Source: a virus
Lineage: Duplodnaviria > Heunggongvirae > Uroviricota > Caudoviricetes
IMG/VR virus record: IMGVR_UViG_2648501223_000008
Length of the DNA stretch: 24,087 nucleotides
Strand: one strand, 5' to 3'
Below are positions 15,375 to 15,451 of the stretch, piece by piece. The notes beneath the pieces were generated by a model that saw nothing but the letters and a program-made list of their open reading frames with translations, did not search any database and had not been told where the DNA came from. Both the position numbers and the translations under genes were made by a program. Position 1 is the stretch's first letter, and every line of letters starts with the position of its first letter.

Positions 15375-15451
15375 TGGACCGCCACCGGGGACTCGAACCT
15401 CGCACACTCAACTTAAAGGGTTGACGCTCTTTCCTGATGAGCTAGTGGCGG
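15375..15451 (-). tRNA. Atypical tRNA-like gene (anticodon UUU, Lys-like, but C at position 33 and C1-G72 pair)
   Basis: 77 nt ccgccac-ta-gctc-atcaggaaa-gagc-g-tcaac-cctttaa-gttga-gtgtg-cgagg-ttcgagt-ccccg-gtggcgg-t-cca folds as a cloverleaf by hand with one T-stem mismatch; anticodon loop cctttaa lacks the near-universal U33. Confidence 0.4.

Follow-up and report, generated by a model that had tools for sequence, protein, structure and literature searches.

What is a phage tRNA that presents the lysine anticodon UUU on a body derived from tRNA-Arg, with C33 in place of the U33 (U-turn) base of canonical elongator tRNAs? The question is raised by IMG/VR virus record IMGVR_UViG_2648501223_000008 (Duplodnaviria; Heunggongvirae; Uroviricota; Caudoviricetes), whose 24,087 nucleotides (nt) we refer to as the window, and by the second gene of a four-tRNA block in its prophage remnant, the window tRNA. 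An earlier note, made by reading the window without database searches, had suggested that the gene could be either a pseudo-tRNA in decay or a phage tRNA whose decoding has been altered. We tentatively favor a version of the first suggestion: the window tRNA is a foldable, probably co-transcribed member of the argN family that would be under relaxed selection, with no more than the activity of a weak, redundant tRNA-Lys.

Structure and descent of the window tRNA

Read from 15451 to 15375 on the - strand, the window tRNA is CCGCCAC UA GCUC AUCAGGAAA GAGC G UCAAC CCUUUAA GUUGA GUGUG CGAGG UUCGAGU CCCCG GUGGCGG U CCA, a 77-nt cloverleaf with an encoded CCA, a C1-G72 pair, U73 as the discriminator base and A20. 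The description given in the earlier note (77-nt cloverleaf, CCA, CCUUUAA loop, C33 and C1-G72) was borne out by the sequence, by ARAGORN and by Rfam, as was the position in a prophage cluster between tRNA-Thr(UGU) and a tRNA with anticodon CAU, at distances of 2 and 1 nt, respectively. The A51.C63 mismatch, U73 and A20 are additional to that description. ARAGORN called a tRNA-Lys(ttt) with ends at exactly 15375 and 15451, the boundaries proposed in the note, and no tool returned a canonical alternative. The Rfam tRNA model RF00005 was matched end to end (model positions 1-71) by 15378-15451, and the gathering score of 29 was exceeded by the full cloverleaf, at 44.4 bits (E=5.8e-9 locally and 1.3e-6 when the whole window is considered). 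The same model gave 64.9-72.6 bits for four neighboring tRNAs, and 57-72.6 bits for the five other tRNAs in the window. The identical 77-mer recurs in 279 complete Escherichia coli genomes and in many viral contigs, which is far beyond chance.

The window copy retains U8, A14, G18 G19, G53, U54 U55 C56, A58, C61, a purine at position 37 and the 3' CCA. Its losses, for a gene that is still called by both ARAGORN and Rfam, are U33 and a single pair of the T stem, where A51 faces C63. The predicted minimum free energy (MFE) fold lacks the cloverleaf, and we rejected this as an indication of non-function because the gap between the cloverleaf and the MFE fold, 2.7 kcal/mol, equals that of the Thr tRNA (2.7 kcal/mol) and is close to that of host lysT (2.2 kcal/mol). 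Weak matches of the scaffold to YrlA (Y-RNA-like), at 20-22 bits against a threshold of 69, were at chance level and were also set aside.

In sequence, the window tRNA combines features of two isoacceptor families. It has the UUU anticodon of tRNA-Lys(UUU) and the 36-UAA-38 determinant of N6-threonylcarbamoyladenosine at position 37 (t6A37). Its loop agrees with that of host tRNA-Lys(UUU) (the lysT family) at six of seven bases, including UUU, C32, A37, A38 and 36-UAA-38. By contrast, host tRNA-Lys has U33, A73 and G1-C72, whereas the window tRNA has C33, U73, C1-G72 and the T-stem mismatch. Moreover, its body has no similarity to lysT, unlike those of the Gly tRNA of the block, which equals glyT, and the Thr tRNA, which is thrU with one change. 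The agreement of the loop with host tRNA-Lys at six of seven positions might be read as a sign of selection; we dropped this argument because the loop of the Arg(UCU) sisters described below already matches at six of seven.

The body is instead that of argN, the tRNA-Arg(UCG) of the ileZ-argN-argO cluster of Shiga toxin (Stx)-converting lambdoid phages (such as Stx2a_F349, phage 2851 and 1717). The window tRNA and argN are ~84% identical, with the acceptor stem, the D arm with A20, the T arm, U73 and the encoded CCA in common. They share the acceptor pattern CCGCCAY/RUGGCGG with C1-G72, and both occupy the slot after Q and directly behind a CAU tRNA. Within the anticodon stem, G30-C40 of argN has been replaced by A30-U40, a compensatory change. 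Unlike the window tRNA, argN (53.6 or 43.0 bits with the Rfam model) has the loop CUUCGAA with U33 and UCG, has the anticodon stem UCAGC/GCUGG, and is followed by argO rather than by Thr and Gly tRNAs. A literature search on argN, ileZ and argO found nothing relevant. Arginine identity, which combines A20 with C35 in a UCG or UCU anticodon, is present in the window tRNA only as A20, with U at position 35. We conclude from these alignments that the window tRNA is an argN-family member by descent, not by decoding identity, and that the description "Lys-like" in the earlier note holds for the anticodon but not for the body, which is a tRNA-Arg scaffold of argN type unlike lysT.

For arginyl-tRNA synthetase (ArgRS), C35 is the strongest identity element and A20 the major one outside the anticodon; for lysyl-tRNA synthetase (LysRS), U34-U36 are the main set and A73 is a minor element. 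By these rules the window tRNA should be charged with lysine, if it is charged at all. That it is still an arginine acceptor, with A20 and the Arg body allowing charging by ArgRS and hence arginine at Lys codons (or some other mischarging), is very improbable: A20 is retained and U73 stands in place of the A73 of tRNA-Lys, but C35 is gone, U34-U36 are present, and systematic Lys-to-Arg misreading would be costly, yet the gene is found in ~15% of E. coli genomes. As to position 33, eukaryotic cytoplasmic initiator tRNAs have C33 and are a natural precedent for ribosomal function of a C33 tRNA, although they act in P-site initiation rather than A-site elongation and are evolutionarily unrelated to the window tRNA.

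To place the window form among its relatives we used an unbiased sample, from a scan anchored solely on the flanking CAU and Thr tRNAs. Among the 80 loci listed, we found the C33 UUU form in the middle slot at 53, a canonical tRNA-Arg(UCU) on the same scaffold at 14 and short-loop forms at 13. The Arg(UCU) sisters have an identical anticodon stem, UCAAC/GUUGA, and the loop CUUCUAA, such that the window loop differs from a canonical Arg loop by U33C and C35U only; their Rfam score is 56.4 bits, compared with 44.4 for the window tRNA. Forms of this type in other E. coli prophages (for example, L186 and JCM5491) have the same slot, scaffold, anticodon stem and A20, and differ in having A51-U63 or G51-C63 and, in one type, G73. 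A second sister, the DEF2 form, has a UUU anticodon with U33 (loop CUUUUAU), a perfect T stem with G51-C63, and a compensatory U4-A69. This form is present in 20 of 5,426 complete E. coli genomes, and is labeled tRNA-Lys by the Prokaryotic Genome Annotation Pipeline (PGAP). The simplest history would be that C35U first turned Arg(UCU) into Lys(UUU) and that U33C came second, an order suggested by the stem shared with the Arg(UCU) sisters and by the retention of U33 in the rare UUU sister. At 51-63, F349-type argN shares the A.C mismatch and phi296 argN has G.U; Watson-Crick pairs (A-U or G-C) occupy this position in the Arg(UCU) and DEF2 forms. Among IMG/VR copies with the same anticodon stem and D arm, none had a base other than C at position 33 or other than U at position 34; the single return of the scan for non-C33 variants (L179) proved to be an unrelated tRNA-Arg(CCU), a chance match.

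Variation among copies and the case for relaxed selection

Window-type tRNAs are carried by 798 of the 5,426 complete E. coli genomes (~15%), with identities of at least 99% (279 genomes), 95-99% (474 genomes) or 90-95% (45 genomes). Of the 53 C33 UUU copies in the unbiased sample, 34 are identical to the window tRNA and 19 are non-modal. Substitutions per site per locus amounted to 0.0118 for the window tRNA, 0.0077 for the Thr tRNA and 0.0016 for the CAU tRNA; this pattern, from a small and partly clonal sample, is neutral-like, with the rates of the Thr and CAU tRNAs exceeded by factors of 1.5 and 7, respectively. We counted 18 distinct events in a roughly even distribution, only one of them in the loop; they include U8C (10 loci), C11U, C4U, G18A and a 1-nt deletion in the D stem. 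An early estimate ranked the window tRNA as better conserved than the rest of the block, but this was an artefact of ascertainment, in that only copies with an intact D arm could match the search pattern.

Annotation of the copies follows their degree of change. PGAP assigns the label tRNA-Lys to the intact form and also to copies that differ from it at one or two positions, and attaches no pseudogene flag. By contrast, sister copies with 3-7 further changes, including losses at U8, G18 and G53, are rejected by annotation and by Rfam. Four such variants lack a PGAP annotation and had no Rfam tRNA match: the YD786 type (C4U, U8C and C11U), CREC-36 (the same changes plus G53A), ETEC1749 (seven changes, including G18A) and the "PPompW" type from enterohemorrhagic E. 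coli (the D-stem deletion plus G3.U70). In the three RefSeq variants (YD786 type, CREC-36 and ETEC1749) the neighboring Ile, Thr and Gly tRNAs remain annotated, and in the phage record of the PPompW type the adjoining Met(CAU) and Arg(UCU) tRNAs are annotated. We estimate from an evenly spaced listing that about half of the E. coli copies fall into unannotated classes, possibly from few clonal lineages. Since sister copies often bear further lesions while their neighbors stay intact, constraint on the gene appears to be relaxed, and the weight of the population evidence favors relaxed constraint over specialized decoding. The suggestion of a decaying pseudo-tRNA is therefore sound with respect to the lineage, in which invariant positions have been lesioned several times, but not with respect to this copy, which is the intact modal form. 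For the other suggestion, altered decoding, we found nothing that points to frameshifting, suppression or any other altered decoding.

Note that the tRNA cluster is also carried by the induced E. coli phages vB_EcoS-689R5 and vB_EcoM-606R7 (ON470583.1 and ON470580.1, respectively), for which the depositors annotated Met, Thr and Gly tRNAs only. Phage vB_EcoM-606R7 contains an intact C33 tRNA (L005:826-902) that was left unannotated; hence, public records label the gene inconsistently.

A plausible sequence of events begins with an Arg anticodon, UCU or UCG, that would have become UUU by C35U, with U33 changing to C afterwards. Where spacers are 1-3 nt, E. coli polycistronic tRNAs are separated by RNase P cuts at each downstream 5' end, and the window tRNA would be co-transcribed with its neighbors and released by such cuts. 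LysRS, reading the anticodon, would probably charge the product. As a Lys decoder it would be handicapped by C33, the A51.C63 mismatch and U73, each of which is expected to lower decoding or charging. With its useful function in reading rare Arg codons lost, the gene would be under relaxed selection and would drift toward a pseudogene. The fold may persist mainly through its embedding in a tightly packed operon with neighbors that are still selected, as misfolding of the unit between them would interfere with the release of mature Ile2 and Thr tRNAs by RNase P.

We also considered whether the phage needs these tRNAs for codon supply. Compared with K-12 usage, the late genes of an intact relative prophage (L001) are enriched 1.3-3.4-fold, and its early genes 1.7-6.5-fold, in the host-rare codons AUA, GGA, ACA, AGA/AGG and CGA. 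This enrichment is consistent with codon supply by the Ile2, Gly and Thr tRNAs, as well as by an Arg tRNA where one occupies the middle slot. A supply role for Lys was rejected, since its codons are common and tRNA-Lys is encoded by many host genes, five of them in one K-12 cluster. With lysine so well served by the host, the change of the slot from Arg to "Lys" would have lost a useful function and gained a redundant one.

Several observations weigh against relaxed selection as the explanation. Flanks of many mosaic types surround one and the same modal sequence, which has thus persisted intact through much recombination; the intact form also occurs in induced phages. The C33 form is ~40 times commoner than the U33 sister in complete E. 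coli genomes, an excess that is surprising if C33 is simply a defect. The decayed copies could stem from no more than a few clonal lineages, and decay is in any case usual for prophage genes that serve in lytic growth alone. A separate lineage with the loop CAUUUAA (A33, UUU) suggests that a phage-borne UUU tRNA is wanted, and the same need is suggested by a Thr tRNA that has turned UUU where an intact C33 copy is missing. At five loci (L207, L219, L235, L238 and L247), a thrU-derived tRNA with A26G and G35U has UUU in the canonical loop CUUUUAA; the middle gene at these loci is a lesioned C33 copy in four cases, Arg(UCU) in one, and an intact C33 copy in none.

Counter-defense and the wider scaffold family

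The main alternative, live and testable, is a counter-defense role for C33. The window tRNA would then be a functional tRNA-Lys(UUU) that, because of its non-Lys body, evades nucleases directed at tRNA-Lys (PrrC/RloC, AriB of PARIS, and P2-OLD), and it would sustain translation of the late genes once host tRNA-Lys has been destroyed. We regard this as possible but, on the evidence that follows, doubtful. AriB cuts tRNA-Lys(UUU) and tRNA-Thr(UGU) at U36AAUC|A41; tRNAs altered at positions 39 and 41 are resistant (PMC12409363, PMC11464382). In the window tRNA this site is replaced by U36AAGUU41, and the D loop is unrelated. The tRNA-Lys(UUU) of phage T5 neutralizes PARIS (Burman 2024, PMC11464382; PMC12409363) and, like the window tRNA, is a phage-borne UUU tRNA with an anticodon arm unlike that of host tRNA-Lys at the AriB positions 39-41. 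The T5 tRNA, however, is of bona fide Lys type and comes from a virulent phage, with resistance shown experimentally, whereas the window tRNA is Arg-derived, belongs to a temperate phage, and has C33 and decaying sister copies.

P2-OLD cuts CNG motifs in the anticodon stem, with ThrU cut fastest and tRNA-Lys also cut, and the tRNA-Thr(UGU) of lambdoid phage 21 protects against it (PMC12445682). There are CNG motifs at 28-30 and 40-42 of argN, and the change from G30-C40 to A30-U40 abolishes both in the window tRNA. The window cluster, like lambdoid phage 21, includes a Thr(UGU) tRNA, and the phage 21 tRNA serves counter-defense, not codon supply (PMC12445682). Resistance in phage 21 is due to a shortened anticodon stem and altered CNG motifs; by contrast, the Thr tRNA of the window is thrU with A9G, and its CNG motifs and AriB site are intact. 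The cluster is therefore not a coherent resistance kit. PrrC cleaves 3' of U33, and RloC cleaves at the same junction (PMC2610378), such that C33 lies at the scissile junction of both. Bacterial TsaBD makes no base-specific contact with U33, and t6A requires 36-UAA-38 (PMC13276492), which is retained. Phage tRNAs with anticodon-loop mutations have been described (van den Berg 2023, PMC10264068). A fungal anticodon nuclease, however, cuts a C33 stem-loop as well as one with U33 (PMC2275089), and C33 thus need not protect. HepS, an anticodon nuclease of Gifsy-1, is evaded via tail-tip variants and not via tRNAs, and is therefore of background value only.

Overall, the anticodon, the altered AriB site, the absence of CNG from the stem and C33 together give the window tRNA the sites predicted for nuclease evasion. 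The adjacency of Lys(UUU) and Thr(UGU) tRNAs in the cluster, the high frequency of the C33 form relative to the U33 form, and the independent origin of UUU on other bodies (the CAUUUAA lineage and the Thr-derived tRNAs) are likewise consistent with counter-defense. Against it, besides the intact Thr tRNA and the fungal nuclease, stand the lesions at U8, G18 and the D stem, which are tolerated at high frequency, and the handicaps of C33, A51.C63 and U73, which should lower decoding or charging of any surrogate.

The scaffold extends beyond the window type. Many prophage contigs contain its acceptor, D and T arms after a CAU tRNA and next to Gly(UCC), Thr(UGU) or both, and the arms also occur in Yersinia phage YeP1, Edwardsiella and Citrobacter; most loci that include the CAU tRNA have the scaffold gene directly after it (0-3 nt). 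In 26 distinct family sequences, paired cells make up 98.5%. The anticodon stem never departs from 5 bp and shows covariation, with five pair types at 27-43, six of the seven acceptor pairs are essentially fixed (five invariant, one with a G3.U70 exception), and A20 is nearly invariant. The discriminator base changes repeatedly, and the loop takes 28% of changes across the whole family, against 9% expected (p=1e-10). Loops are mostly 5-6 nt (range 5-8 nt), and slippage in U-runs contributes to the changes in length. In a group that we label clade B (loci including L140, L202, L185 and L200 of IMG/VR), a near-constant body carries 13 different loops of 5-6 nt, such as CUUGGU, CUCAGU, CCAGGU and UAAAU; 51% of changes fall in the loop, which makes up 8% of the length (p=6e-14), and most of these loops cannot decode. 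No cultured-phage record covers clade A or clade B.

Two explanations can be proposed for this wide loop variation across genera (5-8 nt) on a conserved body: the body may be selected for a role that works without a canonical loop, or selection may favor diversity in the loop itself. The argN-type scaffold could, rather than being an ordinary decoder family, be a phage "anticodon-arm cassette", with a body conserved across Enterobacterales prophages and a fast-diversifying loop (5-8 nt, often without U33). It would provide uncleavable surrogates or decoys for anticodon nucleases encoded by rival prophages and defense islands, and the C33 UUU version would be a tRNA-Lys mimic directed against PrrC, RloC, PARIS or OLD-type nucleases. 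We consider this proposal unlikely.

Also unlikely is a loop-independent tRNA-like element, in which the acceptor, T and D arms and the CCA are functional and UUU has no decoding meaning; such an element might be a punctuation signal for RNase P, or a decoy or substrate for a factor that recognizes the body or the 3' end. The conservation of body pairing across genera with changes concentrated in the loop, and the constant spacing of 0-3 nt to the neighbors, are what this explanation predicts. Similarly, the lesioned E. coli copies keep a fully paired acceptor stem and, except for CREC-36 (G53A), a fully paired T stem. However, several members from E. coli phages (argN, the Arg(UCU) forms and the DEF2 Lys form) carry fully canonical loops of 7 nt and resemble ordinary decoders. 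The anticodon stem is strictly preserved even though RNase P can act without one, and some clusters have no scaffold gene.

Other members of the family have features of their own. A U33 Lys form with the 8-nt loop CUUUUUAU, annotated by PGAP as tRNA-Lys, occurs in E. coli M3 and PG20180057 (L260:401-478 and L261:401-478); a loop of 8 nt is the size found in classical +1 frameshift suppressor tRNAs. In E. coli ETEC6335 (L258:401-481), an 81-nt scaffold copy with an 11-nt loop, annotated as "tRNA-OTHER", lies between the CAU tRNA and a tRNA-Arg(UCU), immediately upstream of stx2e subunit A. Yersinia phage YeP1 (L004:828-902) and L172 have the loop CAUUGCC (A33, UUG) with G73, as in tRNA-Gln, and the depositors labeled the gene tRNA-Pseudo-TTG. 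The argN of Stx2a_F349 (L002:681-757) and the PPompW copy (L003:681-756) have a G3.U70 wobble, the major identity element for alanyl-tRNA synthetase. Between yahL and yahM, most E. coli genomes (~3,200 records) harbor a scaffold relic of 81 nt that is unannotated, shares 76.5% identity with the window tRNA and extends over the start codon of yahM; examples are the K-12-like strain AML003_par (L255:1501-1581), HB101 and XL1-Blue. ARAGORN reports this relic as a tRNA-Ser(gga) with an enlarged anticodon arm.

Operon, surrounding prophage and significance

The tRNA block lies on the - strand in the order CAU, window tRNA, Thr(UGU) and Gly(UCC), with spacers of 1, 2 and 3 nt, in the late-operon slot between the genes for antitermination protein Q and the holin (Table 1). 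A promoter-like element stops ~10 nt short of the CAU tRNA, and its -35/-10 layout is found at an unchanged distance in loci where the upstream sequence has diverged, suggesting that the block probably has a transcription unit of its own, besides late readthrough. The element is followed by a GC-rich discriminator, CCTGCGCCC, that resembles those of stringently controlled stable-RNA promoters.

Table 1. Coordinates of the window tRNA, its parts and the neighboring features of the late-operon slot.
Feature	Position	Strand	Basis
tRNA under study	15375-15451	-	ARAGORN; Rfam RF00005; alignments to argN and Arg(UCU) forms; PGAP on identical copies
C33 and anticodon U34 U35 U36	C33, 15418; anticodon, 15417-15415	-	sequence read
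Anticodon loop CCUUUAA, 36-UAA-38 kept	15419-15413	-	sequence read
T arm with mismatch A51 (15400). C63 (15388)	15388-15400	-	non-standard pair flagged by cmscan
tRNA CAU, first in block; tRNA-Ile in PGAP; ileX/ileZ-like, reads AUA after lysidine modification	15453-15528	-	ARAGORN; Rfam; PGAP
tRNA-Thr(UGU), host thrU with single A9G	15297-15372	-	ARAGORN; host comparison
tRNA-Gly(UCC), identical to host glyT	15219-15293	-	ARAGORN; host comparison
Putative sigma-70-like promoter, TTGCAA-17 nt-TATTAT	15538-15566	-	consensus scan
GC-rich hairpin with T/A runs on either side, tR'-like, usable on both strands	15636-15659	.	putative function, from position downstream of Q
Antitermination protein Q, upstream edge of slot	15727-16416	-	Pfam PF06323, E=3.7e-91
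P21-type holin S, downstream edge of slot	14711-14926	-	Pfam PF04971, E=1.4e-35

The prophage is a remnant, cut off just past the holin by insertion sequence (IS) elements of the IS66 family (12944-14612) and the IS3 family (11726-12544). A contractile tail sheath gene beyond these elements (9678-11174) presumably belongs to a different phage. At the other end, an integrase gene (19669-20694) abuts the tRNA-Ser(CGA) gene serU (20747-20836), with asnT at 21828-21903. A Shigella flexneri chromosome is 99.9% identical to the window over 7756-12947 and 99.2% identical over 12947-15568. The remnant also contains a sok antisense RNA (18429-18604; 118.9 bits) and an adjoining small hok-like open reading frame (18279-18491), and in the related prophage L001 hokD is annotated at the equivalent place. 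Elsewhere in the window, there are full-length matches to the Shigella small RNA CssrB (2048-2227; 230 bits) and to the IS009 RNA family (1088-1291; 129 bits).

Phage tRNAs have lately been recast as counter-defense against tRNA-cleaving immunity, mostly on the basis of virulent phages such as T5. The family described here is a natural experiment in temperate phages, with one scaffold appearing as Arg(UCG), as Arg(UCU), as Lys(UUU) with U33, as Lys(UUU) with C33, and with short non-decoding loops. In many genomes, the label "tRNA-Lys" covers a gene of Arg descent that is probably weak. Should C33 protect against PrrC, RloC, PARIS or OLD, the window tRNA would be a simple example of anticodon-loop evasion combined with a switch of identity from Arg to Lys; if it does not, the family would be a record of the decay of a phage tRNA amid operon neighbors that have been kept.

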